Of a stretch of 12,903 nt of DNA, positions 1 through 12,466 are shown piece after piece. Position numbers and translations under genes: made by a program. The stretch covers positions 1-12,903 of the IMG/VR virus record IMGVR_UViG_2531839662_000018; one strand, written 5' to 3'. The stretch's first letter is position 1; the number at the start of each line of letters is the position of its first letter. Under the pieces are notes generated by a model. It was not told the origin of the DNA, made no database searches, and was given only the letters and a program-made list of their open reading frames with translations. The DNA is from a virus (lineage: Duplodnaviria > Heunggongvirae > Uroviricota > Caudoviricetes).

Positions 1-1242
1 ATGGCACGAAAAACCACCCCACTAACCATTACGGAGATCAAAAACGCACGACCAGGGGAAAAGGAATACACCCTGCAGGATGGTGGAGGATTATTTCTTC
101 TGGTGAAACCCTCCGGATCAAAAATCTGGCGTTTTACGTACTATCGCCCGGCAGATAAAAAACGGACTATCATCAGCCTCGGATCGCTGAATGATGTTTC
201 CCTGTCCGATGCCAGAGAACGACGGAATGAATACAGGTCACTCATAGCGAAGGGAGTTGACCCACAGGACCACGAACGCCGGAAACGTGAAGCAGAGAGT
301 CGGAAAAAGGGCAACACGTTCGAAAAAGTTGCCTCGGACTGGTACGAGATGAAAAAAGGCCAGAATCTGGCTTACAACACGATTAAGGATATCTGGCGAT
401 CCCTGGAAAAATACGTATTCCCGTACATCGGAAACACGCCAATAGATACCCTCACAGCTCGCCGCTTTGTTGAGATACTCACACCCATTAAAGCACGCGG
501 CAACCTGGAAACCCTGAAACGCGTTTTACAACGCATCAATGAAGTGATGGATTTTGCTGCCAACAGTGGGCTGATTGACATCAACACCGCCGCGAACGTC
601 CGCAAGGCATTCCCCTCACCCACCAAAAAGCACATGCCAACCATCCGACCGGAACAGCTACCGCAGCTAATGCACGATTTATCGGTCGCCAGCATAGAAC
701 GGCAAACCAGATTGCTGATTGAGTGGCAACTGCTGACCGTAGCACGCCCAGCCGAAGCAGCCGCCGCACGCTGGGAAGAAATAGATCTCGATGCCGAAAC
801 CTGGACGATTCCAGCCGGACGCATGAAGATGCGCCGTGACCATGTGATCCCTCTTTGCGGTCAGGCGATGGCTGTACTGGAAACAATGAAGCCAATCAGC
901 GCACACAGGGAACATGTTTTTCCCAGCCTTAAAAATCCAATGCTGCCAATGAGCAGCCAGACCGCTAACGCTGCATTGCGCCGGATGGGATACGCTGGTG
1001 TGCTGGTGTCTCACGGATTACGCGCCATATTCAGTACAGCAGCGAACGAGGAAGGATTCGAGCCGGACGTAATCGAGGCCGCACTCGCACACGTGGACAC
1101 GAACGAGGTAAGGCGAGCATATAACCGAAGTAACTACCTGGAAAAGCGCGTGGTGCTTATGCGCTGGTGGGGGGAATTTGTAGAGGCCGCAGCTACCGGA
1201 GTGACCATAGCCAGTGGTAAAAGGGGTATCCGTGCCGTGTAA
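1..1242 (+). CDS. int: P4-type tyrosine integrase/recombinase (413 aa)
   Basis: Full ORF from ATG at position 1. N-terminal arm-binding region with the DGGGL motif typical of P4-family integrases (KEYTLQDGGGLFLLVKPSGSKIWRFTYY). C-terminal catalytic region has HGLR, a later AHV, and the nucleophile Tyr in RRAYNRSNYLEKRVVLMRWW. Identified by eye from conserved motifs. Confidence 0.95.
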   Translation: MARKTTPLTITEIKNARPGEKEYTLQDGGGLFLLVKPSGSKIWRFTYYRPADKKRTIISLGSLNDVSLSDARERRNEYRSLIAKGVDPQDHERRKREAESRKKGNTFEKVASDWYEMKKGQNLAYNTIKDIWRSLEKYVFPYIGNTPIDTLTARRFVEILTPIKARGNLETLKRVLQRINEVMDFAANSGLIDINTAANVRKAFPSPTKKHMPTIRPEQLPQLMHDLSVASIERQTRLLIEWQLLTVARPAEAAAARWEEIDLDAETWTIPAGRMKMRRDHVIPLCGQAMAVLETMKPISAHREHVFPSLKNPMLPMSSQTANAALRRMGYAGVLVSHGLRAIFSTAANEEGFEPDVIEAALAHVDTNEVRRAYNRSNYLEKRVVLMRWWGEFVEAAATGVTIASGKRGIRAV

Positions 1243-1741: not shown

Positions 1742-1948
1742 GTGGAAACAATCAGAAAAATCCTTACCCGTCAGGAAGTAAAAAATATTCTGCGCATCAA
1801 GGCAGACAGTTCGCTACAGGACATGATCAACGCCGGAAAATTCCCGAAAGGCTTCAAAATCGGTCTGCGTCGTGTTGGCTGGTATGAAGATGAGGTGCTG
1901 GCCTGGCTGAAAGAACGCGAGGAAGAAGCGCGCGGAACGGCTGCGTAA
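1742..1948 (+). CDS. alpA: AlpA-family (excisionase-like HTH) transcriptional regulator
   Basis: 68-codon ORF with a GTG start and a GAGGT Shine-Dalgarno about 10 nt upstream. The sequence fits the AlpA pattern (FPKGFKIGLRRVGWYEDEVLAWL), and int followed by alpA is the canonical order in these islands. Confidence 0.85.
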   Translation: METIRKILTRQEVKNILRIKADSSLQDMINAGKFPKGFKIGLRRVGWYEDEVLAWLKEREEEARGTAA

Positions 1949-1967: not shown

Positions 1968-2954
1968 ATGAACATAACAAAAAGCGCCCCGTTGCCGGAG
2001 CGCCTTTGTGAACGAATAGCCTACTGCGCCATATTGCTTACTGTCTACGAGGCAGATTATAGCGTTGTGGTCGCACAGAGTGAAGGCGCTGATCACCGTT
2101 ACTACAGCACGCCAGAAATGCAGAATATTTTGCTGCAAAATGCCGTTGGTCACGCCGTCCGGAAAGCAAAAAATTTTGCTGGTGGCGCGACTGATGCGAT
2201 TTTGTCAGGTCGCCAGGTGCTGATCAATCTGATGTCTGATTTCGTTCTGGATAAAACAAAGGCGACCGCAGAGAGCCGCCAGTGGAAAAGCTACATACTT
2301 GAACGCATCACCAACAATGCCACATTTGCGGCTGGTGGGCAAAGCGTAACCGGAAAAAAATTCCGGTGGGGCTATTCCTGCTCTTTGGCCTTGCGACGCT
2401 GGCGGTATTCAACTTCTCGCTTTAATGCTGCTGTTACAAACTGCCCTGTACTTTCACCAGGCATTTTTACCGCCTCAACATTGTTCATAACTTCATGCGG
2501 AACCCTTGCCGCAACTGTTTGTGATTTTGCGTTTACTGCTTTTGTTGCCATGTTGTGTACCCCTTACAAAAAACAAATGCAGTATGCAGGAAAAAAAATA
2601 AGTGTTCAACACTTGACGTGTTTAACACCAGGGCTTAAATTGGTGTTCAACACCTTACTGATGCAAGGTGCAGAAACGACGAAACCCGGCAGTGCGCTAA
2701 CACTAACCGGGCTTCTAACCACCAACGATAGAAAGCGTATCGAGGTAGCTATGAGAAATTATACCAGACACCCGCAAGGGCGGGACTCGTACAACCTGAA
2801 TAAATACATCTGGCGTTTTATCGCCCTGAGCACGGCACAACCGCGCGTGATTCACATCGTGGCCACCAGCGAACAGGAAGCACGCCAGCAATCCCCGGCT
2901 GGCTGCGTGATGGTATTCGCTGCCCGTATTCGCCAGGAGGTACGCCATGATTAA
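1968..2954 (+). CDS. long stop-free frame (328 aa from ATG 1968); probably a composite, not one protein
   Basis: The 5-prime 400 nt has a GAGG ribosome-binding site 9 nt upstream and coding-like, purine-rich first codon positions. The middle (2372-2654) reads as Cys/Ser/Thr/Phe-rich junk, is antisense to a well-formed RHH ORF, and contains three perfect palindromes plus a promoter. The 3-prime 204 nt (ATG 2751, GAGGT site) ends in an ATGATTAA overlap with the next gene. A gene finder would likely call the whole ORF; I consider that call doubtful. Confidence 0.3.
   Translation: MNITKSAPLPERLCERIAYCAILLTVYEADYSVVVAQSEGADHRYYSTPEMQNILLQNAVGHAVRKAKNFAGGATDAILSGRQVLINLMSDFVLDKTKATAESRQWKSYILERITNNATFAAGGQSVTGKKFRWGYSCSLALRRWRYSTSRFNAAVTNCPVLSPGIFTASTLFITSCGTLAATVCDFAFTAFVAMLCTPYKKQMQYAGKKISVQHLTCLTPGLKLVFNTLLMQGAETTKPGSALTLTGLLTTNDRKRIEVAMRNYTRHPQGRDSYNLNKYIWRFIALSTAQPRVIHIVATSEQEARQQSPAGCVMVFAARIRQEVRHD
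2372..2551 (-). CDS. ribbon-helix-helix (Arc/CopG-like) transcriptional repressor candidate, 59 aa
   Basis: Minus-strand ORF MATKAVNAKSQTVAARVPHEVMNNVEAVKMPGESTGQFVTAALKREVEYRQRRKAKEQE, below the ORF-track length cutoff. It has a beta-strand/helix/helix RHH pattern, an AAGGGG Shine-Dalgarno 8 nt upstream, and G/A-rich first codon positions, while the opposite strand looks antisense. It is transcribed divergently from the adjacent palindromic operators. Confidence 0.55.
   Translation of the reverse strand: MATKAVNAKSQTVAARVPHEVMNNVEAVKMPGESTGQFVTAALKREVEYRQRRKAKEQE
2601..2654 (+). promoter_or_regulatory. rightward sigma70-like promoter overlapped by three palindromic operators
   Basis: Palindromes AGTGTTCAACACT (2601-2613), GTGTTTAACAC (2618-2628) and GGTGTTCAACACC (2642-2654). 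Candidate -35 TTGACG (2613-2618) and -10 TTAAAT (2635-2640) with a 16-bp spacer. One operator sits just upstream of the -35, one in the spacer and one just after the -10. Confidence 0.55.
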
Positions 2955-3312
2955 CCTGTCAATTTCTGACCTTAACAGCATTCAGTTTGATGAGAAATTC
3001 ACCGGGCAGCTACTGGTTAACGTGGAGAATGGACGCGTGGCAAGTAATTATCACCTGCCGGATGGTGCAATTGCCGGAAGCGTTGAAGCATTGCTGGAGC
3101 TGGCAGAACGTGCGCGACTGATTAAGCCGTTAACGAGCCATCACGATGATGATCTGCATTTTACCGGACGCATGGTGAGTCACTACGAAAACGGCGTTGA
3201 AGTATCCCGAGAACGGCTGCGAGATGATTGCTGTTTCGGAACACTGCCGGAATTTATCGAATTGCTGACCAGTTGCGGTTATCAGGTTATTCAGGGGGTG
3301 AATCATGGATAA
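2947..3312 (+). CDS. hypothetical protein (121 aa); paralog of the next gene
   Basis: Strong AGGAGG Shine-Dalgarno 6 nt upstream. The start overlaps the upstream frame stop (ATGATTAA). Its N-terminal half resembles the downstream 66-aa protein. Confidence 0.75.
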   Translation: MINLSISDLNSIQFDEKFTGQLLVNVENGRVASNYHLPDGAIAGSVEALLELAERARLIKPLTSHHDDDLHFTGRMVSHYENGVEVSRERLRDDCCFGTLPEFIELLTSCGYQVIQGVNHG

Positions 3313-3505
3313 TCAGCAAGCAACAATGACAATTACCCTGAGTGTGCCAGATGATTTCACCGGACGCATACTGGTTTACCTGGATAAAGGGAAAGTGAAA
3401 TCACAATGCCGACTGAAAAGTAATGAGATTGTTGGTTCTCCTGAATTTTTTTCTGAACTCTGTATTCGTGCGGAAATAAAACCGGAACTGCTGACAGGAA
3501 AATAA
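3305..3505 (+). CDS. hypothetical small protein (66 aa); paralog of the N-terminal half of the previous gene
   Basis: Overlaps the previous gene by 8 nt, with a GGGGGTG ribosome-binding site. The two proteins share an alignable block (DDFTGRILVYLDKGKV ... IVGSPEFFSELCIRAEIKP versus DEKFTGQLLVNVENGRV ... IAGSVEALLELAERARLIKP). Confidence 0.7.
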   Translation: MDNQQATMTITLSVPDDFTGRILVYLDKGKVKSQCRLKSNEIVGSPEFFSELCIRAEIKPELLTGK

Positions 3506-3509
3506 AACC

Positions 3510-3809
3510 ATGAAAAAGAAAAATTCTGGCTTTACTGCCAGTGGTCTCCCTCGGCCTGAAATCCGCCCCGGCGATATTTTCCGGGATAACTACGGCGGCA
3601 CGGTAACGATTAAAAGTATTGCCGGACGGTGCGTTACTTACCGCCGTGATGGGTACAGCTACGACTGCGTGATGCCTGTTTATCAGTTCCGGCGTGATTT
3701 TTCACTGATACAGGCCACACCACGCAAACAGCCCACCAGCAACGCAAAGGCACGGGCAAATATTCAGAAAATGAAAAACATGATTAACGCATTCAGGGGC
3801 ACAAAATGA
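3510..3809 (+). CDS. hypothetical protein (99 aa)
   Basis: Tightly packed in the operon; its stop overlaps the next start (ATGA). No family recognised. Confidence 0.7.
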   Translation: MKKKNSGFTASGLPRPEIRPGDIFRDNYGGTVTIKSIAGRCVTYRRDGYSYDCVMPVYQFRRDFSLIQATPRKQPTSNAKARANIQKMKNMINAFRGTK

Positions 3810-5221
3810 AACTGGCACCGAACTTAAAAAAACAGCCACACGACAAAATGACCGAAGTCATTATTTTTGCGGGTAGTGATGCCTGGGCGCACGCGAAACA
3901 GTGGCAGGAGCAGGACGGGCGACTTGCTGGCGACAACGTGCCGCCTGTATGGCTGGGAGACAGCCAGCTTGACGAACTGGCAGACCTGAAAATTATCGAC
4001 GATGGTCGCTATTGTGTCCGGCTGTACAAGGCAGGCCACATCAAGCCGTCAAATATTAACGCCATCGGGCAAAAGCTGGCGGCGGCAGGTGTACGGGATG
4101 CGAATTATTACCCCGAGGGAATGCACAGCCAGAAACGCGAGGAGTGGCGCGAATATCTGGAACGAGAGCGCCAGAAAAGACTGTCCGGAGAGATACCAGA
4201 GGAAGAAAAAAACGACCAGCGAAAAACCACACTGCCAATGAGTATTGGATCTGCAGGGTACGACACACAGCTTGATTATGTCGTTAAGGGCGTGATTCCG
4301 GCTAATTCATTGTGCAGCACATACGGCGCGAGCGGTTCCTATAAATCGTTCCTCGCGTGTTCCTGGGCGTGTCATGTTGCCACGGGTCGCCACTGGGGAG
4401 GCCGCAGGGTGGCGCATGGTTCGGTGATGTATGTCGTCGGTGAAGGTGGCATTGGTGTCCCTCGTCGTATCAAAGCATGGGAAATCGTTAATGATGAACG
4501 GGTGAAAAATCTGTACCTGGTAAACCGCCCGATTTTTCCGGCGGTCCCGCTTGATGTTGATGAAATGGTCATCGCTTCCCGTCAGGTTGAACGGGAAACG
4601 GGTAAACCGGTACGCATGATTATTCTGGATACGCTGGCGCGTTGCTTTGGCGGTAATGATGAAAATGACGCGCGGGATATGGGGGCGTTTATCCGTGGAT
4701 GTGACGAACTGAAACGACGCACAGGGGCTACGGTACTGGTGGTTCACCATTCCGGCAAGGATGAAACAAAAGGGGCGCGTGGTTCCAGTGCATTTCGTGC
4801 ATCTCTGGACGCTGAATACCGTATTCGCCGTGAAGGTGCGGACAGTGAAGCCCTGGTTATCTCCTGCACCAAAATGAAGGACGCGGAGGAACTGAAAGAG
4901 GCTGCATATGATTTACGCGTGGTGGAGCTTTTTACCGACACTGACGGGGAGTTAATCACGTCGCTGGTGGTTGTGGATAAGCCGCGCCCACCTGTTGAAC
5001 TGGAACGCATCGAGGAGGCCGGGAACAAGACGGAAAATCACGCTGCGCTATGGCAGTGCATCAGAACGCGAACAGCACACGGGGAGGCGTGCACTATCGC
5101 CCTTCTCCGCGATGATATGAAAAAGCTGGGGTATGAAATGAAAAACTTCCGGCGCTGGCTGTACAAGCTGGAAAGCGACGGCGTAATCGCTATTGACGGT
5201 GATTATGTGCGCCCACTGTAA
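3806..5221 (+). CDS. replication protein with RepA-like RecA-fold helicase/ATPase domain (471 aa)
   Basis: P-loop-like YGASGSYKSF, Walker-B-like MIILDTLARCF and the LVVHHSGKD motif typical of RepA/AAA_25-type replicative ATPases. The N-terminal domain of about 160 aa is of unknown type. The gene is followed immediately by an iteron array. Confidence 0.85.
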   Translation: MKLAPNLKKQPHDKMTEVIIFAGSDAWAHAKQWQEQDGRLAGDNVPPVWLGDSQLDELADLKIIDDGRYCVRLYKAGHIKPSNINAIGQKLAAAGVRDANYYPEGMHSQKREEWREYLERERQKRLSGEIPEEEKNDQRKTTLPMSIGSAGYDTQLDYVVKGVIPANSLCSTYGASGSYKSFLACSWACHVATGRHWGGRRVAHGSVMYVVGEGGIGVPRRIKAWEIVNDERVKNLYLVNRPIFPAVPLDVDEMVIASRQVERETGKPVRMIILDTLARCFGGNDENDARDMGAFIRGCDELKRRTGATVLVVHHSGKDETKGARGSSAFRASLDAEYRIRREGADSEALVISCTKMKDAEELKEAAYDLRVVELFTDTDGELITSLVVVDKPRPPVELERIEEAGNKTENHAALWQCIRTRTAHGEACTIALLRDDMKKLGYEMKNFRRWLYKLESDGVIAIDGDYVRPL

Positions 5222-5612
5222 AAAGTGAGGAGCAAAAGTGAGGATGGCGGGTAATTTAACAAAAAATCAACGCCACTCCTCACTTTCTCACCTGTATATA
5301 GGTCAAAAAGTGAGGAATGAAAAACATATTGTAAAACAAGACATTACAACAACAAGAAAAACAGGTGAGGAGCAGGACGGGAATAACAAAAAGTGAGGAA
5401 CAAAAGTGAGGAATGGTGAGTTAATAGAAATGAGGTAATAAAAATAACAGGTAGGTTAAAAAACACACCATGCAAGATATTAACTAAAACTTAACTATTT
5501 ACCTCACTTTTGCGTATATATAAGGATTAAAAAGTGAGTACTTAAAAATACATTTAAAATCATATTGTTATTAACTTCATAAATTTTCACTGTGCAGCAG
5601 GTGAGGAATTAA
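5221..5612. repeat. iteron array / candidate replication origin
   Basis: At least nine copies of the core AAAGTGAGGA, with CAGGTGAGGA variants, in both orientations (for example 5221-5232, 5235-5245, 5278-5287 reversed, 5305-5319, 5361-5372, 5387-5399, 5402-5415, 5501-5510 reversed, 5598-5610). They are embedded in AT-rich DNA with no ORF, directly downstream of the rep gene. Confidence 0.75.
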
Positions 5613-5687
5613 AAAATCAGGAATGTTAAAAATGAAAACAGAATGTTGTGTCAGTGCCGTTGGGCAACGTAGCAATCAGTAAAAACG

Positions 5688-6230
5688 ATGGGGCAAAGCA
5701 TGACTAAGCTGACCATTAACAGAAAACCTAAAGGCATTTACGGCACGCCGCAGAAAACGACGCAGGCGGCGCAGGAGCAGGATAAAACCACGTCGGCGCA
5801 TAAAGTGATGCCCGGTAACCAGAAAGCGCAGCAGAAGCCCACAGGGGCGACACCGTGGCGGCATATGACCAAACGCCAGCGCAAAAACCGCAGGCGCGTT
5901 AACCGCCTTATCGAACTGTGGCCAGAATTATTCAGCCGGGAAGCACCGAAGCCGCTTAAGGTGGGGATATTTGACGACCTGATGCAGGATCTCGCCGTCA
6001 GGGGGCTGGCATTCGGGCCAGGGGCATTACGTGCGACGCTGGCATCTTATGCGCAGTGTCCGCGCTATTACCGCGCCTTAATGGCTGGTGGGGTACGCTA
6101 CGACCTGAAAGGCCAGCCGTGCGGCGAGGTGACACCACAGGAACAACAGGACGCAGAAACGCGGCTGGTGGCGCTGAATGAGAAGCGCAAACGTCAGCGC
6201 CGGGCAGCAAAGGAGAAAACAGGCGCATGA
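5688..6230 (+). CDS. ProQ/FinO-domain RNA-binding protein
   Basis: The central region (PLKVGIFDDLMQDLAVRGLAFGPGALRATLASYAQCPRYYRALMAGGVRYDLKGQPCGEV) matches, from memory, the conserved ProQ N-terminal/FinO domain. Basic Lys/Arg-rich N- and C-terminal tails. An alternative start at ATG 5700 has a better GGGG ribosome-binding site. Confidence 0.85.
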   Translation: MGQSMTKLTINRKPKGIYGTPQKTTQAAQEQDKTTSAHKVMPGNQKAQQKPTGATPWRHMTKRQRKNRRRVNRLIELWPELFSREAPKPLKVGIFDDLMQDLAVRGLAFGPGALRATLASYAQCPRYYRALMAGGVRYDLKGQPCGEVTPQEQQDAETRLVALNEKRKRQRRAAKEKTGA

Positions 6231-6514
6231 TTCACGACAGCAAAGCGGAAGCACTGGAAGCGCGTGGTCTGTACCGGAGAGCGGCGGCGCGGTGGGCTGA
6301 GGTCATCATGCTGGCGAATGATGACAAGGCACGGGAACAGGCGGCAAAACGTCGCGCGGAATGTATCCGCAAGGCAGCACGCCCACCAGCACGGCAGGAT
6401 AATTTCGGGGAGATGCGCGAAACCATCAGCCGGGCACATGCCGGGATGGGATTACATCAGCCCAATGGTAAGGCATTCAGGAAATACCCTGGATCGAAAA
6501 ATTGCAGTCAGTGA
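6227..6514 (+). CDS. PerC-like small transcriptional regulator candidate (95 aa)
   Basis: The start overlaps the previous stop (ATGA). The N-terminus (KAEALEARGLYRRAAARWAEV) resembles the conserved opening of PerC-family regulators, recalled from memory without alignment. Basic, Arg-rich protein. Confidence 0.6.
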   Translation: MIHDSKAEALEARGLYRRAAARWAEVIMLANDDKAREQAAKRRAECIRKAARPPARQDNFGEMRETISRAHAGMGLHQPNGKAFRKYPGSKNCSQ

Positions 6515-6889: not shown

Positions 6890-6928
6890 TGGTCGTGATT
6901 TTTTGGTGAAAAAAGAGAGGTGGTAACA

Positions 6929-7513
6929 ATGCCAGCAAGCAAAGAAGATTTGCGATTAAAACTGATGGAGGTGGTTAACGCTCTGTCAGAGTCGCAGGGC
7001 AGCACTCCGCAGGAGATTATCGAAATTCTGAATGCGATCCCCGCACAGGATTTCACAAAAGCAGATGAGGACAACGCGAATCAAAACATCGTCGCGTCAG
7101 TCGAAGATGAATCCTCACTGGCAGAAGCCCAGGCTAAAGCAGATTCCGCATACAGCAATATGGGCCGTCGCGCTCCAGCCCCGTTTGCTGGTGAAAAGTC
7201 GATGGATTACCGCAAGCGTGCATTAATTGGTGCACAGAAGCTGGCTAAAAAATTCAGTGATGTGGATATTCGTTCCGTTTCAGATTCTGCAACGCTGGCG
7301 GTGCTGGAAGATCAGATTTACCAGGCTGCAAAAGACAGTGTTCAGTGGGCCGTGGAAAACACGCCGGGCCATTTGGGTAAAACCGTAAGAATGGATGAAG
7401 CTGGTCGTCGTATTACTGAATATCAGGGCGATCCGAACGTCTGGCTGAACGCCTTCAAAATCCCTCCCCGTCGCCTGGTCAAAATTAACACTGCAAGCCT
7501 CGCGGGGGCATGA
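6929..7513 (+). CDS. hypothetical protein (194 aa)
   Basis: ATG at 6929 with an AGAGAGG ribosome-binding site 8 nt upstream; the ORF-track start is a GTG at 6920. Acidic N-terminal half. No family recognised. Confidence 0.75.
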   Translation: MPASKEDLRLKLMEVVNALSESQGSTPQEIIEILNAIPAQDFTKADEDNANQNIVASVEDESSLAEAQAKADSAYSNMGRRAPAPFAGEKSMDYRKRALIGAQKLAKKFSDVDIRSVSDSATLAVLEDQIYQAAKDSVQWAVENTPGHLGKTVRMDEAGRRITEYQGDPNVWLNAFKIPPRRLVKINTASLAGA

Positions 7514-7577: not shown

Positions 7578-8249
7578 ATGCTTTTAACAGAAATTGAGGC
7601 GGCAAAGCAGATTCGGGACGGTCAGCTACCGTCGCCTTATCAGTTTTCCAACATGTGGCTGGTTAACCTGCGTATTACAGGAACCGGTATGGCCTACCGC
7701 GCCGAAGAAAAAGAATTTGTCTGGCGTTCACCGCAAACTTATCTCAATCCGCAGTTCCTGGAACGTTGCGCCGGAGTACCCGTCATTATCGACCATCCCG
7801 AAGGCAAAACCATTGAAGACGTTGGCGAACGGTCGCGCATTATTGGCACCGTCATGTTGCCGTATATTCGCGGTGACGAGGTGTGGGGTGTATGCCGGAT
7901 TTACGGGCAGGAAATCATCGATTACATCCAGAAAGCACGGGGGGAGGTATCCACCAGCCCGTCGGTTGTGTTTTGTGGTGCGTCCGGTGGGGCAGAAGTT
8001 CCTGATGTAATGGGCGAGGACAATTTTTTCATTGAGGGTACGCCATTCCTTATCGATCACGTTGCGCTCGTGCCGCTTGGTGTTTGGGATAAGGGCGGGA
8101 AACCATCGGGTGTGGAGGTAACAACGCCGACAGCAGAAGAACAGCTCGCCGGAATGGTCCGGGACGTTATTGATGCGGCCTGCAAGCCAGCCCTGGAAAA
8201 ACTGGAAGAAATATCCGGGCGGCTGGCTCAACTGGAAAAAACAGAGTGA
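7578..8249 (+). CDS. hypothetical protein (223 aa)
   Basis: Protein-like composition; only a weak ribosome-binding site. A faint resemblance to phage prohead-protease-like folds (PVIIDHPEG ... IGTV ... EVSTSPSV) is too weak to call. Confidence 0.75.
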   Translation: MLLTEIEAAKQIRDGQLPSPYQFSNMWLVNLRITGTGMAYRAEEKEFVWRSPQTYLNPQFLERCAGVPVIIDHPEGKTIEDVGERSRIIGTVMLPYIRGDEVWGVCRIYGQEIIDYIQKARGEVSTSPSVVFCGASGGAEVPDVMGEDNFFIEGTPFLIDHVALVPLGVWDKGGKPSGVEVTTPTAEEQLAGMVRDVIDAACKPALEKLEEISGRLAQLEKTE

Positions 8250-8256
8250 GTGAATC

Positions 8257-8874
8257 ATGAAAATTGCTAAAAACTTAAATCTGATTATCCCTGTGCGCAC
8301 TGAAAAGGGAAATGGCTGGATCCATGCCACGCCGATCAGCAAAGAGGTGTTTAAAGAGCATTTCTTCATCCTGAGTAAAACCTTTTCTGCCATTTTTTCT
8401 GAAGGTCTTGGTGTTGTTGCGGGTCCGCGCGTTGCCTGCCTTATGCTGGAGAAAATCTCCCGTGACTCCGGTTTATGGGATGGGGAGAAAGGCATACGTA
8501 ATACGCTCATAAACGAAATTATTCGCCTGGCAAACCTTGTTTATCCAGTGGAGGGCAAAGGCTACGACACAATCCCTCTCGATATGGCGCTGGAGCGTGA
8601 AATCGTTGATTTGGACGAAGTGGCGGGTGAACTTGTTTTTTTTACATGCGTCTCGTCGATAAATTCCCCGGAGCAGACGAAGGGGACTATGGATGCGGTG
8701 AATGGAATATGGAGCACTCAATGCTCGTCCTTGAGTCTTACGGAATGGATCGCTTCATTGCCGACATTGAAGCCTGCCGTCAGTTCTGGCGCGACGGCGA
8801 ACACGTCATCAGCGACATCCTCGACTACTCAGCCGGAGCCGGATTCAGAGACATCTGTGCAGATTCCGGTCTGA
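8257..8874 (+). CDS. hypothetical protein; zero-frame product 205 aa, candidate upstream partner of a -1 frameshift pair (G-like)
   Basis: The first 129 codons are protein-like. After the T8 run (8636-8643) the zero frame becomes Ser/Thr-rich low complexity until its stop at 8874, while the -1 frame carries a well-formed ORF. Confidence 0.6.
   Translation: MKIAKNLNLIIPVRTEKGNGWIHATPISKEVFKEHFFILSKTFSAIFSEGLGVVAGPRVACLMLEKISRDSGLWDGEKGIRNTLINEIIRLANLVYPVEGKGYDTIPLDMALEREIVDLDEVAGELVFFTCVSSINSPEQTKGTMDAVNGIWSTQCSSLSLTEWIASLPTLKPAVSSGATANTSSATSSTTQPEPDSETSVQIPV
8636..8643 (+). other. T8 homopolymer forming a U UUU UUU slippery heptamer (candidate -1 programmed frameshift site)
   Basis: Zero-frame codons GTT TTT TTT ACA. 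A -1 slip re-pairs both tRNAs on TTT and continues as TAC ATG into the frame of ORF 8646-8939. Confidence 0.4.
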
Positions 8875-8939
8875 ATGTAAAAACAGCAGCTCAGTTTCGT
8901 GAGCTGCTCAAATTCAAAAATCCCGCAGGAGTATTGTAA
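8646..8939 (+). CDS. -1 frame ORF (97 aa from its first ATG), probably the C-terminal extension of a frameshift fusion (GT-like)
   Basis: This frame opens at 8631 just before the slip site. Its stop overlaps the start of the 679-aa gene (TAATG). Protein-like composition (FIADIEACRQFWRDGEHVISDILDYSAGAGFRDICADSGLNVKTAAQFRELLKF). Internal ATGs at 8709 and 8721, the latter with a GGAG ribosome-binding site, allow independent initiation as an alternative. Confidence 0.5.
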   Translation: MRLVDKFPGADEGDYGCGEWNMEHSMLVLESYGMDRFIADIEACRQFWRDGEHVISDILDYSAGAGFRDICADSGLNVKTAAQFRELLKFKNPAGVL

Positions 8940-10978
8940 TGTCAGGTAATCAGATGCCAGTTCTAACGCTGGACGTTAATGAAGAACACCTCAAACGGCT
9001 TGAGGCAATTTTTGAAAAGTATCGCAACGGGCTGATGATCGGCCCTGCCGGAACGCCGATGAAAATACCGGGGCAAAGTGGGCGCAGCGTGGGGGCAGGC
9101 TTACCCGTGGCGGCAAAATCTGGTCGGACAGGACCGGATGTATCCGGGAGAGTGAGGGACGAAAAAGGGCGCTTTGTCGGCAGCGGAAAAACAGCAGATT
9201 CGTTCGTAAGCAACTATAAAGGTCGCGGCGAAACGATGTTTGATAAGTATCTCAGCGGGCTGGGGAAAAATGCCCAACAGACGCTGAAAACTTACAAGCA
9301 GATCAATTCTACACTACAGACGACCACTTCAAGATTAAACAACCTGTTTAAAACAACCGTATCGTGGGGAACAAAACTCTCGGTTATGGGCGTTGCCGGA
9401 CCGTTTGGCTTTGGCATGATGTCCCGTAGTGTTGTAGAGAAACAGAAAAATGCAGATGAGCTGGTGGCAACGCCAGGAGAGTTAAAGGCGGCAGAAAGCA
9501 CTTATTCGCCTTATTTTTCCGGTGTTGGCAATGTGCTCAATACACTGGCAGCAGCACAAAATGATATATCGCATCCTGCCCGCGTCGGCCTGCTTAATCT
9601 GGGGCTAAATCCTGATAAAAACGCGACTGAAAACCTGCCTGTATTCCTGAAAAAGGTTGCAGCGCTGGCAAAGGAATATCAGGGAACTGGTCTTACCCAG
9701 AGCAATTTCAGAGGAATGGGGCTTGGATGGGTAAATTTTGGTCTTACTAACCAGTTAGTCAAATATCAGGACAAAATACCTGAACTCAACAAAGAGTTTT
9801 CGTTACGTGCAGCGCAGAATGATTCGTTACTGACCTCTGCACATACAAGTAAATATCAGAATCTTACCAGTAACCTGGAAAAAAACTGGGATCGGCTTAC
9901 CAGCGGATTTCAGGGAGCAATGGCGGGGAATGAAGACGCTTTAATCAGAATGTCTGATGGTACCACGAATGCTGCCCTGAATTTCATGAATGGTGAGAAC
10001 TTTAAAAGGATTCTGACTGATGTTGAAACGGGGCTGGATAAACTTGGTAAGTACGTTAATGGCCCGGATTTTAATAACGACCTGAACAATTTTGCCGAAA
10101 ACGTTGCAAAGGTCACCAAGGCACTTAGCGGATTTGTTGGTTTTGCCGTTGAACATCCCTGGCTTTTTGGGGCCGCAGTGCTTGCGGGGCCATCAAGAGT
10201 TGGTGCCGTGGCAGCCACAACAACCGGAGTTGCCGCTCGTGTTGTCGGTGGAAGTCTTCTTGGGGCTACAGCCGGAACAGTAGCAGGATTGGCTATTCCT
10301 ACAAATAACACACCTACCACCAGTGAGGAAATGAAAGGGCTGGAGGGGCGTTTCAACTTTGATTATTTTAACGAAGTGCAGGAGTGGCAAAAAAACAATC
10401 CGGGTAAGGTCTGGCCTGGAGGATTGCAGGGATTTTCAAATCAAGTAAACAGATCTGCATATTTATCCAGAGGGATCAGGAATAACAATCCCGGAAATCT
10501 TAATTTCGCAGGACAAAAAGGGGCTACTCTGGAATCGGGGCCAAATGCCCGTTTTGCCAGCTTCCCGACGATGCTGGAAGGCATTGCCGCCTTAGATCGG
10601 CAGGTAATGCTATACCTGAAACGCGGCAAAAATACGATTGATCAGATTATTGATATTTATGCCCCTTCATCTGATGGAAATAACACATCGTCCTATAAAA
10701 GCTATCTTTCTCAGTACACCGGATTAGGTGTTAAGGAGAAAATTGATGGTTCTAATTTTGAGGTCATGAAAAAGCTAATTCAGGGCATTATTAACCATGA
10801 AAATGGTGCTGCCGCTAAAGCTGTAAGTGTTGAAGATGTGATCCGGGCGCTGGCTATGAATCGTGGGATTGTCCCTGCAGCAGGAAACAATGATCAGAAC
10901 GTTAAGTTGGAAATTGTTCGGAACGCTGGTGCCGATTACTTCGCGCAACTAATTGGTGCTCAACGGTTCCTGGGATGA
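8939..10978 (+). CDS. large protein (679 aa) with Gly/Ala-rich hydrophobic core; tape-measure-like candidate
   Basis: Strong AGGAG ribosome-binding site, coupled to the upstream ORF. An Asn/Thr/Gly-rich N-terminal 400 aa. A hydrophobic segment FAVEHPWLFGAAVLAGPSRVGAVAATTTGVAARVVGGSLLGATAGTVAGLAIP (nt about 10143-10300). A C-terminal domain of about 220 aa containing the motif RGIRNNNPGNL (nt about 10471-10503). Confidence 0.9.
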   Translation: MSGNQMPVLTLDVNEEHLKRLEAIFEKYRNGLMIGPAGTPMKIPGQSGRSVGAGLPVAAKSGRTGPDVSGRVRDEKGRFVGSGKTADSFVSNYKGRGETMFDKYLSGLGKNAQQTLKTYKQINSTLQTTTSRLNNLFKTTVSWGTKLSVMGVAGPFGFGMMSRSVVEKQKNADELVATPGELKAAESTYSPYFSGVGNVLNTLAAAQNDISHPARVGLLNLGLNPDKNATENLPVFLKKVAALAKEYQGTGLTQSNFRGMGLGWVNFGLTNQLVKYQDKIPELNKEFSLRAAQNDSLLTSAHTSKYQNLTSNLEKNWDRLTSGFQGAMAGNEDALIRMSDGTTNAALNFMNGENFKRILTDVETGLDKLGKYVNGPDFNNDLNNFAENVAKVTKALSGFVGFAVEHPWLFGAAVLAGPSRVGAVAATTTGVAARVVGGSLLGATAGTVAGLAIPTNNTPTTSEEMKGLEGRFNFDYFNEVQEWQKNNPGKVWPGGLQGFSNQVNRSAYLSRGIRNNNPGNLNFAGQKGATLESGPNARFASFPTMLEGIAALDRQVMLYLKRGKNTIDQIIDIYAPSSDGNNTSSYKSYLSQYTGLGVKEKIDGSNFEVMKKLIQGIINHENGAAAKAVSVEDVIRALAMNRGIVPAAGNNDQNVKLEIVRNAGADYFAQLIGAQRFLG

Positions 10979-11029
10979 TTTAAATACACGCGCTTTCCGG
11001 CGCATTAATACAGTCTGAGGGGAAGTGTC

Positions 11030-11554
11030 ATGTTTATGAGCAAGGCAGAATATGCCAAACACAAAGGCGTAAGCCGCCAGACAGTTTACGACTGGATCGA
11101 GAAAGGCGAAGTGGTCATGTCCGGTAAAAAAATCGATGTGGAAGCGACAGAGCAGCGGAACAGCCCACCAGCACAGGGAAAAGATACCGTTTCTGAAATG
11201 TGGCCAGAGAGAACGCTGGAAATGACGTGGGGCGAGTTCTGGAAAGCAGTTAAGGCCAGAGACGGTAAAATCCCTGCACCAGTAACGGACGATGACATAC
11301 AGCAGCGTGTGCAGGATGCAGCCGGGGAATTATGCTGTGAAGTGCAATTTCTTGATGATGGTGCTATCTGCCTTGAGGATTATGCTGGGCAATATTACTT
11401 TGAGCAGTATGATTTTCGGGAAAATGCCAGGCTGGCAATTCGTATGCTGCGTTGTGAGCTCTGCTATGTTGCAGGTGATTGTCCCGATGAGCTGGATAAC
11501 TGGAGTGAAGCCGGACTAAACGCCCTGGCTGAGTGGGAAAAATCATCCCATTAA
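11030..11554 (+). CDS. HTH DNA-binding protein (174 aa), excisionase/terminase-small-subunit-like N-terminal HTH with Cys-rich C-terminal domain
   Basis: GAGGGGAAG ribosome-binding site. The N-terminus (KAEYAKHKGVSRQTVYDWIEKGEV) is a classic HTH of the Xis/AlpA/TerS-Nu1 type. The C-terminal half has six Cys (CCEVQF ... CLEDY ... CELCYVAGDC). Confidence 0.8.
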   Translation: MFMSKAEYAKHKGVSRQTVYDWIEKGEVVMSGKKIDVEATEQRNSPPAQGKDTVSEMWPERTLEMTWGEFWKAVKARDGKIPAPVTDDDIQQRVQDAAGELCCEVQFLDDGAICLEDYAGQYYFEQYDFRENARLAIRMLRCELCYVAGDCPDELDNWSEAGLNALAEWEKSSH

Positions 11555-11565
11555 TGACCGTAAAA

Positions 11566-11857
11566 TTCGCGAAAAGTGTCAAGTCAGGCCGTCTGCCGGG
11601 TTGACACTTTACACTCTGAACGCGAAAAAGTGTCAACCTCGCTGTAAACCCCGCCGTTACTGGCTTTGCGCCAGATTTACCACGTCAAAAAGCCGAAAAA
11701 ATCGCGAAAAGTGTCAAGTTGCCATGCTTAGAAATGCTAAGGTTTGATAAGGTTTTTCGCGAAAAAGTGTCAAGTGTGTCAACCTGCGATGTTAAGGTTT
11801 GTTAAGGTCTTAAGCCGGAAAGTGTCAACCAGCCCCCTAAGATTTCCTAAGGTGTAA
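11566..11857. repeat. array of two interleaved short repeat families (candidate protein-binding or packaging/origin-like site)
   Basis: Family 1 is CGCGAAAAGTGTCAAG and variants (11566-11584, 11621-11638, 11702-11720, 11757-11784, 11817-11830, plus an inverted copy TTGACACTTT at 11601-11610). Family 2 is (C/T)TAAGGT(T/C)T in six copies (11738-11757, 11791-11814, 11836-11857). The region has no ORF. Confidence 0.7.
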
Positions 11858-11860
11858 ATC

Positions 11861-12040
11861 ATGACCATCACCGAAGCCGATATGCTGGAGATGATCCGCA
11901 GCATTGCCGGAATCAGACAACCAGCAAGCAAAATTAACAGGTGTTCAGCGCCTGTTTCCGTTGTGCTGCAACAGGAGCGCCACCAGCATGATGATGTGAG
12001 GCCGTATCAGTGGCGGAAACCGGACAGGCCGCGACGGTGA
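11861..12040 (+). CDS. short paralog (59 aa) of the terminal gene, with an internal deletion
   Basis: MTITEADMLEMIRSIAGIRQPASK ... RPYQWRKPDRPRR. Both ends are homologous to the 94-aa protein at 12619-12903 by eye at DNA and protein level, but about 40 central residues are missing. It has an AAGGTG ribosome-binding site and is below the ORF-track cutoff. Confidence 0.45.
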   Translation: MTITEADMLEMIRSIAGIRQPASKINRCSAPVSVVLQQERHQHDDVRPYQWRKPDRPRR

Positions 12041-12148
12041 GCGGAGCGTTCGGTAAGGCTACAGCCAAGCCTTACATTAAGCCTACGGGTAACCCTTCGA
12101 AGGGGCTTTAAAGGGGAGATGATTATCCTTACCCGTTGATAAACAAGC

Positions 12149-12168
12149 AAACCTCAAATTTGAGGTTT
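12149..12168. promoter_or_regulatory. perfect 20-bp palindrome AAACCTCAAATTTGAGGTTT (one of a pair)
   Basis: Perfect inverted repeat. A related copy AAACCTCGATTTGAGG lies at about 12349-12364, roughly 200 bp downstream. Confidence 0.4.
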
Positions 12169-12466
12169 GTATCTGCCTGACTTATTTTTGTGCTAAGTTG
12201 TTGATATATCCGACGACGCAAAATTGCGCTGGCTACATCCCTCACATCTGAGGACTGTTAACCAGCAGGCCGGAATATATTCACAAACTACGAAATTTTC
12301 GCAGTTTAATTACTCGCCAGCTTAATCGCTAACCCACTGATATTTTCGGAAACCTCGATTTGAGGAGACCGGAACGTCTACATGACTGCATCACCATAAC
12401 GATTTCCGTTACAGTTGATGTGCTTTTTTGCTGGTAAGGCCTAACCCGTTGATTCTTCCACAATTC

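Follow-up and report, generated by a model that had tools for sequence, protein, structure and literature searches.

That satellites can encode tape measure proteins (TMPs) was demonstrated for the first time in 2025-26, the only case being the PLE satellites of Vibrio cholerae. These elements have genes for a tail assembly chaperone, a TMP and a baseplate hub, and build chimeric tails on parts of phage ICP1; the TMP incorporated is the satellite's own, and transduction drops by 96-99.9% without the PLE TMP (Nature 2026, PMC12987554). The same study reports candidate tmp genes in PLE-like elements and in some phage-inducible chromosomal islands of the capsid-forming type (cf-PICIs; its Extended Data Fig. 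10), and leaves open why satellites alter tails. A TMP has also been reported in the mycobacterial satellites termed EPIPs (preprint, bioRxiv 10.64898/2025.12.02.691453). The present work concerns a 12,903-nucleotide (nt) stretch of DNA (the window; IMG/VR record IMGVR_UViG_2531839662_000018), which is 100% identical to positions 2651638-2664540 of the Escherichia coli UMNF18 chromosome and represents an island with the backbone of a phage-inducible chromosomal island (PICI). Two overlapping open reading frames (ORF1 and ORF2) and a gene for a 679-amino-acid (aa) protein form a cassette within it. We are highly confident that these genes specify a tail assembly chaperone pair, expressed through −1 recoding, and a TMP. 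The reading preferred for the whole locus, to which a probability of about 0.6 is assigned, is that of a helper-derived tail-core cassette which a PICI-type satellite would use to place its own TMP in tails built by its helper.

The island of UMNF18 differs from the PLEs in several respects. Lineage and host are unrelated, and the helper is in this case a temperate prophage, while that of PLE is a lytic phage. The UMNF18-type island shows ∼63-90% nt identity to helper alleles, compared with 19-41% protein identity for PLE, and the length of its TMP is almost unchanged, whereas the PLE TMP is 95 aa shorter. Not all members of the UMNF18 island family carry the cassette. As for the PLE-type module, chaperone and TMP are found in the UMNF18 island and a homolog of the hub occupies the slot of a sister island; both together were seen in no island examined. 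The cf-PICIs and the mycobacterial EPIPs are similar in being satellites reported with a predicted TMP, but they also encode capsid, portal or terminase functions, and the EPIP tails are much longer than those of the helper. In contrast, the UMNF18 island has only the chaperone and the TMP, and its helper can be identified by near-identity. An earlier note, made from the letters of the window, could assign the arrangement to no described family; the PLE satellites now provide a precedent for it. The searchable literature yielded no account of a classical E. coli PICI that carries a chaperone-TMP cassette.

The locus offers a tractable E. coli system in which an identifiable temperate helper resides in the same genome, and in which near-isogenic islands with and without the cassette occur naturally at the same site (UMNF18 and ETEC1747), alongside a sister island that has the hub instead. 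By definition, PICIs lack phage structural genes (PMC6092414, PMC11773190), and tail genes are counted as forbidden markers by SatelliteFinder; a 'no tail genes' rule for defining or detecting PICIs would be broken by satellites of this kind.

Identification of the chaperone and tape measure genes

DNA 83-90% identical to positions 8257-8945 of the window was found in ∼90 of 5,426 complete E. coli genomes, mostly in complete prophages. The close loci examined were the prophages of E. coli W, C3, M8 and UMNF18 and the phages vB_Apl-pPE4 and Rac-SA53. Their gene order is terminase, portal, a 440-aa DUF2213 protein, capsid, a 445-aa protein, a 143-aa protein, the ORF1/ORF2 homolog and a protein of 657-693 aa, followed by proteins of 222, 88, 335 and 237 aa and baseplate J. 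By their PHROG matches, the 445-aa protein represents the tail sheath (phrog_205, E 7e-54), and the baseplate hub is the protein of 335 aa (phrog_196, E 5e-43); the tube gene (143 aa) was assigned by position only. The same order was observed in distant loci, namely phages Chronis, vB_YenM_21.09, PdC23 and vB_Sb_QDWS plus three metagenomic contigs. The trio thus lies between sheath/tube and hub in six close and seven distant phage or prophage loci, and because of this position it is taken to be the chaperone and TMP of a contractile tail module. The homolog of the 679-aa protein is the sole long gene between chaperone and hub in these related modules, which contain no other TMP candidate. Two scans of viral contigs with distant homologs gave no hits; the distant loci were taken from the phage collection and from contigs encoding the proteins.

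Several features expected of a TMP are present in the 679-aa protein. Its gene is long and follows that of the chaperone immediately, preceding the hub in the phage and prophage loci; the protein matches phrog_7694 and, like many TMPs, combines a hydrophobic segment with a domain of the cell-wall hydrolase type. The hydrophobic segment contains 37% Gly plus Ala, compared with 21% overall, and Kyte-Doolittle windows of at least 1.2. The C-terminal domain matches the N-terminus of Gp29 (PDB 9vvp, E 3.6e-12) and an endolysin (7q47, E 1.2e-10), and PHROG families annotated as endolysin, tail injection transglycosylase or TMP match this C-terminal stretch only. An identification of 7q47 as the Pae87 muramidase was discarded as wrong (Pae87 corresponds to 7q4s/7q4t), and the domain is termed here only peptidoglycan-hydrolase-like. 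Secondary structure assigned by DSSP to an AlphaFold2 (AF2) model is helical over residues 87-415, in a model with a pLDDT of 32, too poor to use. The gene starts with an ATG (8939-8941) that overlaps the TAA of ORF2 (8937-8939) in a TAATG arrangement, with AGGAG at 8927-8931, eight bases upstream.

The lytic domain of the TMP is modular, an RNNNPGN-type and at least two SLT-type variants being swapped among islands and prophages. This exchange is independent of the N-terminal region of the protein.

A conserved slippery heptamer joins the two chaperone frames

ORF1 contains a run of eight T residues (T8, 8636-8643) that includes the heptamer T_TTT_TTT in X_XXY_YYZ phase with this frame. The frame of ORF2 is open from position 8631 and contains an ATG at 8646; its overlap with ORF1 is long. 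A −1 slip would lead to a product of 227 aa, consisting of 129 aa from ORF1, a Tyr and a further 97 aa. Of 14 close loci, 13 have the T8 run at the very same position, with the −1 ORF running to the start of the next gene. In all seven distant loci, in which the identity of the ORF1 protein is 30-45%, an in-phase T_TTT_TTT falls on two invariant Phe codons, and three of the seven have exactly seven T's. The −1 frame of the distant loci opens 0-10 codons before the heptamer, lacks a conserved start codon, and terminates at or over the TMP start. When the −1 translations were aligned, residues Y1, Y33, G34, L60, G67, F68 and R86 were found to be invariant, within a common motif YG..RF.AD.E followed by LDY/W.A..GF and then FR. 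Single-ORF versions of 226-227 aa exist but are rare.

Overlapping ORFs, a conserved in-phase heptamer and a second ORF devoid of a conserved start are expected of a G/GT-type chaperone pair, and all three are seen here, to an extent well beyond chance. Since the in-phase heptamer is kept at the nucleotide level despite such divergence, the signal is ascribed to ribosomal −1 frameshifting, and its conservation would argue against an independent gene or slippage of the polymerase. A sequencing error in the T run was considered and rejected, given the recurrence of T8 in the close loci and the dominance of the 205-aa form in the database. In the island of strain RM9088 (positions 3808-4424 of locus L019) the chaperone gene has a run of seven T's (T7) rather than T8; frame 0 ends after 134 aa, and PGAP labels the gene as frameshifted. 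The mutation could be real, or the homopolymer could have been misassembled. A perfect 10-bp hairpin downstream of the ORF1 stop (Table 1) shows no variation among seven close homologs; an effect on coupling or on the stability of the mRNA is possible.

A conserved −1 frameshift in tail assembly chaperones of the lambda G/GT type was reportedly described by Xu et al. in 2004. In lambda G/GT and in P2 E/E+E', the slip occurs close to the stop codon of the first ORF. The locus analysed resembles lambda G/GT in lying directly upstream of the TMP gene, in having overlapping ORFs joined by an in-phase slippery heptamer, and in that the second ORF has no conserved start of its own and ends at the start of the TMP. 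It differs in that the slip site lies at codon 129 of 205, i.e. 76 codons before the ORF1 stop, so that ∼230 nt encode two conserved proteins, and in that the 227-aa form is predicted to lack the last folded helices of the 205-aa form; the long form does not contain the short one.

Several observations indicate that the part of ORF1 beyond the slip site is maintained. Among 1.84 billion representative proteins searched, about 700 relatives of ORF1 were found; almost without exception their length is 185-205 aa, and they align through residue ∼185, well beyond the slip site. In an alignment of 100 sequences, F128, F129 and W152 were invariant, and S167 and L168 nearly so. The AF2 model of ORF1 (pLDDT 83) places the slip site inside a helix spanning residues 119-135 and has confident helices up to residue 167; according to this model the protein is folded to about residue 170, and residues 130-170 are thus both conserved and predicted to be folded. 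The variable sites in the overlap, counted per codon position, were 9/21/21 when read in frame 0 and 21/9/21 when read in frame −1, while those upstream were 19/10/83; this pattern matches what dual constraint would give. The pair would therefore specify two products of 205 and 227 aa with 129 common residues and alternative, conserved C-termini. This unusual recoding layout is a property of the phage family, not of the island: a slip in the middle of the gene, ∼230 dual-coding nt and alternative C-termini are common to a poorly annotated group of myoviruses.

In comparison with solved chaperones, such as those of HK97 (2OB9) and PLE1 (5IR0), the pair showed no match in sequence and none of significance in fold. 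A search of BFVD returned several annotated chaperones, at poor E-values, and Foldseek against the PDB gave matches at noise level only; the chaperone call accordingly has position and recoding as its basis, of which the fold is no part. The slippery run linking the two ORFs, the TAATG coupling and the 679-aa Gly/Ala-rich protein had all been placed correctly by the earlier note, and its proposal of a chaperone pair followed by a TMP is reinforced by the synteny between sheath/tube and hub and by the deep conservation of the frameshift signal. The note had also seen in the locus the signature layout of G/GT. The frameshift pair and its order relative to the TMP agree with this, but a slip near the end of the first ORF does not, its place being taken by the long dual-coding overlap. 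Similarly, the size proposed for the extension (∼98 aa) was right, while the 129-aa zero-frame product has to be replaced by the full 205-aa ORF1.

The island and its probable helper prophage

In UMNF18 the island is an insertion of ∼13 kb between tRNA-Pro/yejM and yejO. It is flanked by 26-nt direct repeats located ∼120 bp downstream of tRNA-Pro (positions 3654-3679 and 16880-16905 of the UMNF18 locus, L001). An integrase, an AlpA-type regulator and a replication module with iterons are present on one strand of an element in the 12-15 kb range typical of Gram-negative PICIs, and the plus strand carries every gene of the island. The same backbone is found in the Gram-negative PICIs EcCICFT073, EcCIEDL933 and EcCIMP1 (PMC6092414, PMC11773190), which share with the UMNF18 island the genes int, alpA, a primase/helicase with iterons and PerC on a single strand, a size of ∼13 kb, a location adjacent to a tRNA gene, and membership of a large E. 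coli family with interchangeable modules for helper exploitation. Scans of the window for ORFs and domain families detected no capsid, portal, terminase or lysis genes. The difference from these PICIs is the presence of two tail genes (chaperone and TMP) and of two scaffold-derived genes, which departs from the definition of a PICI as an element without structural genes.

The cassette occupies a variable slot located between the stop codon of the DUF2213 gene (8249) and the gene for a helix-turn-helix (HTH) protein (11030). Its edges coincide with gene boundaries, and the homology to prophages begins exactly at the ATG of ORF1. The junction between DUF2213 and the chaperone was found in 15 of the 5,426 E. 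coli genomes, in islands that use at least two integrases and sites and whose replication genes are RepA, DUF927 or primase. In strain 08-00022, the slot (positions 10105-11408 of locus L009) contains instead homologs of the prophage 88-aa gene (78% identity) and of the baseplate hub (72% identity). The two genes preceding the cassette derive from the single DUF2213 gene of the helper, which in the island is split, with the order of the parts swapped, the C-terminal part lying upstream. The 223-aa protein is a diverged version of the N-terminal half of the 440-aa helper protein (52.6% identical to that of the UMNF18 prophage), and the 197-aa protein is 59% identical to residues ∼290-433 of the prophage protein. 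The structural reference of the DUF2213 family, Pa193 gp24, is a putative scaffolding protein (PMC11456595). This suggests that the split homologs could serve in capsid redirection, a role in capsid size being plausible.

UMNF18 holds a complete myovirus prophage of the Rac-SA53 type at the Rac locus. The identity between the prophage and island proteins is 86% for ORF1, 79% for ORF2 and 87.8% for the TMP. The sheath/tube genes of this prophage family were detected in at least 9 of the 15 genomes with the junction, compared with a background of 88 in 5,426 (1.6%), and in 20 of 33 genomes containing any of the DUF2213-type islands listed; two carriers of the junction are clearly devoid of the prophage. 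We consider it likely that the island is a satellite of the Rac-SA53-type prophage family.

The island copies of the cassette form a cluster, with 91-97% nt identity for the chaperone and 88-96% for the N-terminal part of the TMP, which is distinct from every prophage sampled. Purifying selection acts on the island copies: between the islands of UMNF18 and STEC005, the ratio of nonsynonymous to synonymous substitution rates (dN/dS) was 0.19 in the case of the TMP and only 0.08 in that of the chaperone. The nt identity of the N-terminal region of the TMP between island and prophage of the same genome was 90% in UMNF18, 83% in STEC005, 64% in TUM1881 and 63% in RM9088. The similarities of chaperone and TMP N-terminal region co-vary across lineages, in line with a cognate pair. 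In islands the TMP has a length of 679-687 aa, and in prophages and phages one of 657-693 aa; these values are too similar for a meaningful reprogramming of tail length, and this possibility was rejected.

The satellite or PICI-like island proposed by the earlier note is borne out by the backbone, the flanking repeats, the iterons and the lack of capsid, portal and terminase genes. The alternative it had left room for, that of a prophage fragment, does not fit the recurrence of the junction with several types of integrase and replicase, nor the purifying selection, and a degraded prophage was likewise rejected on the dN/dS values, the intact frames and the island backbone. In the comparison of neighbourhoods that the note had called for, most homologs do lie in complete prophages; however, the island junction recurs in the 15 E. 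coli genomes.

Proposed function and alternative explanations

Under the preferred reading, normal decoding of ORF1 would render the 205-aa chaperone, and a programmed −1 slip on U_UUU_UUU at codons 128-129 the 227-aa chaperone with the other conserved C-terminal domain. Termination in the −1 frame would be coupled (UAAUG) to initiation of the TMP, a protein with a long N-terminal region predicted with low confidence to be helical, the hydrophobic Gly/Ala segment and the C-terminal cell-wall hydrolase domain. Upon induction of the prophage, the island would express its own cognate chaperone-TMP pair, which would seed polymerisation of tube and sheath on helper baseplates. Particles containing island DNA would in this way get chimeric tails in which the island TMP is the core for DNA delivery, and the capsid would be the target of the split scaffold homologs. 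The probable benefit would be independence from, or discrimination against, the TMP allele of the helper; examples would be an escape from TMP-directed exclusion or defence in recipient cells, or the ability to work with helper variants that share only ∼63% nt identity in the N-terminal region of the TMP. The gene identities and the recoding are well supported, while the function in the satellite is one that we infer from analogy and context; for chimeric tails as such, we see the odds as evenly balanced. A broader idea, which is put forward tentatively and may well prove wrong, is that the tail-core cassettes of enterobacterial PICIs (chaperone plus TMP, or hub) are interchangeable units drawn from the helper gene pool, giving the satellite particles a delivery core unlike that of the resident helper. 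If true, such a satellite would enter cells guarded by TMP-directed exclusion or defence and would work across helper variants, and standard satellite finders would miss these islands because their tail genes are disqualifying.

A number of results weigh against the preferred reading. Neither ORF1 nor ORF2 had a match in Pfam, NCBIfam or PADLOC, and no curated chaperone family was hit; similarly, the non-lytic part of the 679-aa protein matched no entry of Pfam, NCBIfam or PADLOC, nor any curated TMP family. No stimulatory RNA structure was apparent, the 100 nt after the slip site folding no better than shuffled sequences (z −1.1). The cassette is dispensable for maintenance of the island, as seen in ETEC1747, where an island of 97-99% identity occupies the same site but has an empty slot; ETEC6335 has a truncated remnant of the chaperone, and the T7 run of the RM9088 island counts in the same direction. 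The P-values obtained for the co-occurrence of island and prophage (2e-13 and 8e-29) are overstated, since many of the isolates are related enterotoxigenic E. coli (ETEC) from pigs. A search for a pac- or cos-like site shared by the island and the resident prophage yielded only a 26-nt match of doubtful meaning. Finally, island and helper TMPs differ in length by only 7-30 residues.

Some of these observations would also be compatible with a cassette that is mere passenger DNA, a slice of prophage captured by recombination that is of no use to the island and persists because its acquisition was recent. The nt identity to prophages is 80-89% for the cassette but 65-70% for the DUF2213 pieces, which suggests that the cassette arrived later; the sharing of TMP C-terminal domains with particular prophages implies ongoing exchange, and there is presence/absence polymorphism, as well as the truncated remnant and the T7 variant. 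However, island copies that have diverged to synonymous distances (dS) of 0.21-0.43 keep a dN/dS of 0.08-0.19 with ORFs and heptamer intact, and they group apart from the prophages. The clean junctions at gene boundaries, the operon orientation, and the sister island, whose corresponding slot holds the hub as another tail-core gene, also speak against a chance capture, which we regard as improbable. Chaperone and TMP might alternatively serve for interference, i.e. these near-cognate proteins would poison assembly of helper tails, through mixed TMP multimers or titration of the chaperone, and lower the helper yield. An identity of 80-90% to some helper alleles makes co-assembly plausible, and tail assembly is often targeted by satellites and prophages, as in the cases of Tai and Rta (PMC11364771, PMC12987554). 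Such a role seems unlikely, however: both proteins are full-length and conserved and appear functional, PADLOC gave no match, the TMP N-terminal regions of TUM1881 and RM9088 are too distant from those of the resident prophages for efficient dominant-negative mixing, and the satellite itself needs tails.

The recoding step could in principle be dispensed with if ORF2 were translated from the ATG at 8646, or if RNA polymerase slipped on the T run. In the E. coli group, that ATG comes three bases downstream of the run, ORF2 matches phrog_14324, which is annotated as a separate family of 97 aa, and homopolymer runs can cause transcriptional slippage. Nevertheless, only the T run precedes the ATG, with no Shine-Dalgarno sequence at a usable distance, and the distant homologs have no start there, their −1 frame opening just before the heptamer. 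The element that is conserved is precisely the in-phase heptamer, also where it consists of no more than seven T's, and this fits slippage of the ribosome better than of the polymerase. Expression of ORF2 by any route other than a ribosomal frameshift is accordingly judged very improbable.

Other features of the island and of related prophages

The features identified in the window are collected in Table 1. The iteron array, directly downstream of the helicase gene, is probably the replication origin of the island. The 174-aa protein encoded to the right of the slot has an N-terminal HTH that weakly matches terminase small subunit and excisionase families, and its gene is kept in islands both with and without the chaperone-TMP cassette; a role in packaging or in regulation is possible. 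Downstream of this gene, repeated CGCGAAAAAGTGTCAAG motifs occur ∼135 bp apart at positions 11558-11773 of the window; these could be an operator or a packaging site.

Table 1. Position of the features of the UMNF18 island, given as coordinates of the window
Feature	Position	Strand	Remarks
Candidate attL/attR	just outside the window, both sides		26-nt direct repeats TTTTTAGCTACACGTT(T/A)AGCTATACG, 13,226 bp apart
Integrase	1-1242	+	backbone gene
AlpA-type HTH protein	1742-1948	+	backbone gene
Icd-like and DUF4222 genes		+	backbone, listed between the AlpA-type HTH protein and the RepA-family helicase
RepA-family helicase	3806-5221	+	replication gene
Five AAAAAGTGAGGA-type iterons	5219-5613		67-141 bp spacing; directly 3′ of the RepA helicase gene
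ProQ/FinO	5688-6230	+	backbone gene
PerC	6227-6514	+	backbone gene
197-aa protein	6920..7513	+	phrog_6216 positions 402-545
223-aa DUF2213 protein	7578..8249	+	Pfam PF09979
ORF1, tail assembly chaperone, zero-frame product ('G-like')	8257..8874	+	205 aa
Slippery heptamer T_TTT_TTT	8637..8643	+	codons Phe128-Phe129
ORF2, −1 frame extension ('T-like')	8643..8939	+	98 codons plus stop
Dual-coding overlap	8646..8874	+	76 codons in frame 0, 76 codons in frame −1
Perfect 10-bp hairpin CAGCAGCTCA-gtttcg-TGAGCTGCTC	8884..8909	+	between ORF1 stop and TMP start, within the −1 frame
TMP	8939..10978	+	679 aa
Gly/Ala-rich hydrophobic segment of TMP	10124..10300	+	aa 396-454
Peptidoglycan-hydrolase-like C-terminal domain of TMP	10460..10858	+	aa ∼508-640, RGIRNNNPGN motif
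174-aa HTH protein	11030..11554	+	right edge of the variable slot

Some part of the island backbone was detected in ∼1,960 of the 5,426 E. coli genomes. Related islands carry other modules for helper exploitation instead, which include a major capsid protein, a ClpP-like protease-capsid fusion, a terminase small subunit together with DUF1441, and an SDH-family protease.

In the prophage loci, PGAP assigns the label 'anti-CBASS protein Acb1 family' to a 478-aa gene located after the large terminase gene (e.g. positions 2706-4142 of locus L003). This label is probably misleading, as the Pfam family of a homolog is Phage_portal_3. The UMNF18 prophage also contains genes for a scabin-related ADP-ribosyltransferase and for the B-subunit of a subtilase-family AB5 toxin (positions 11155-12373 of locus L017), which adjoin the lysis genes and lie just upstream of them.

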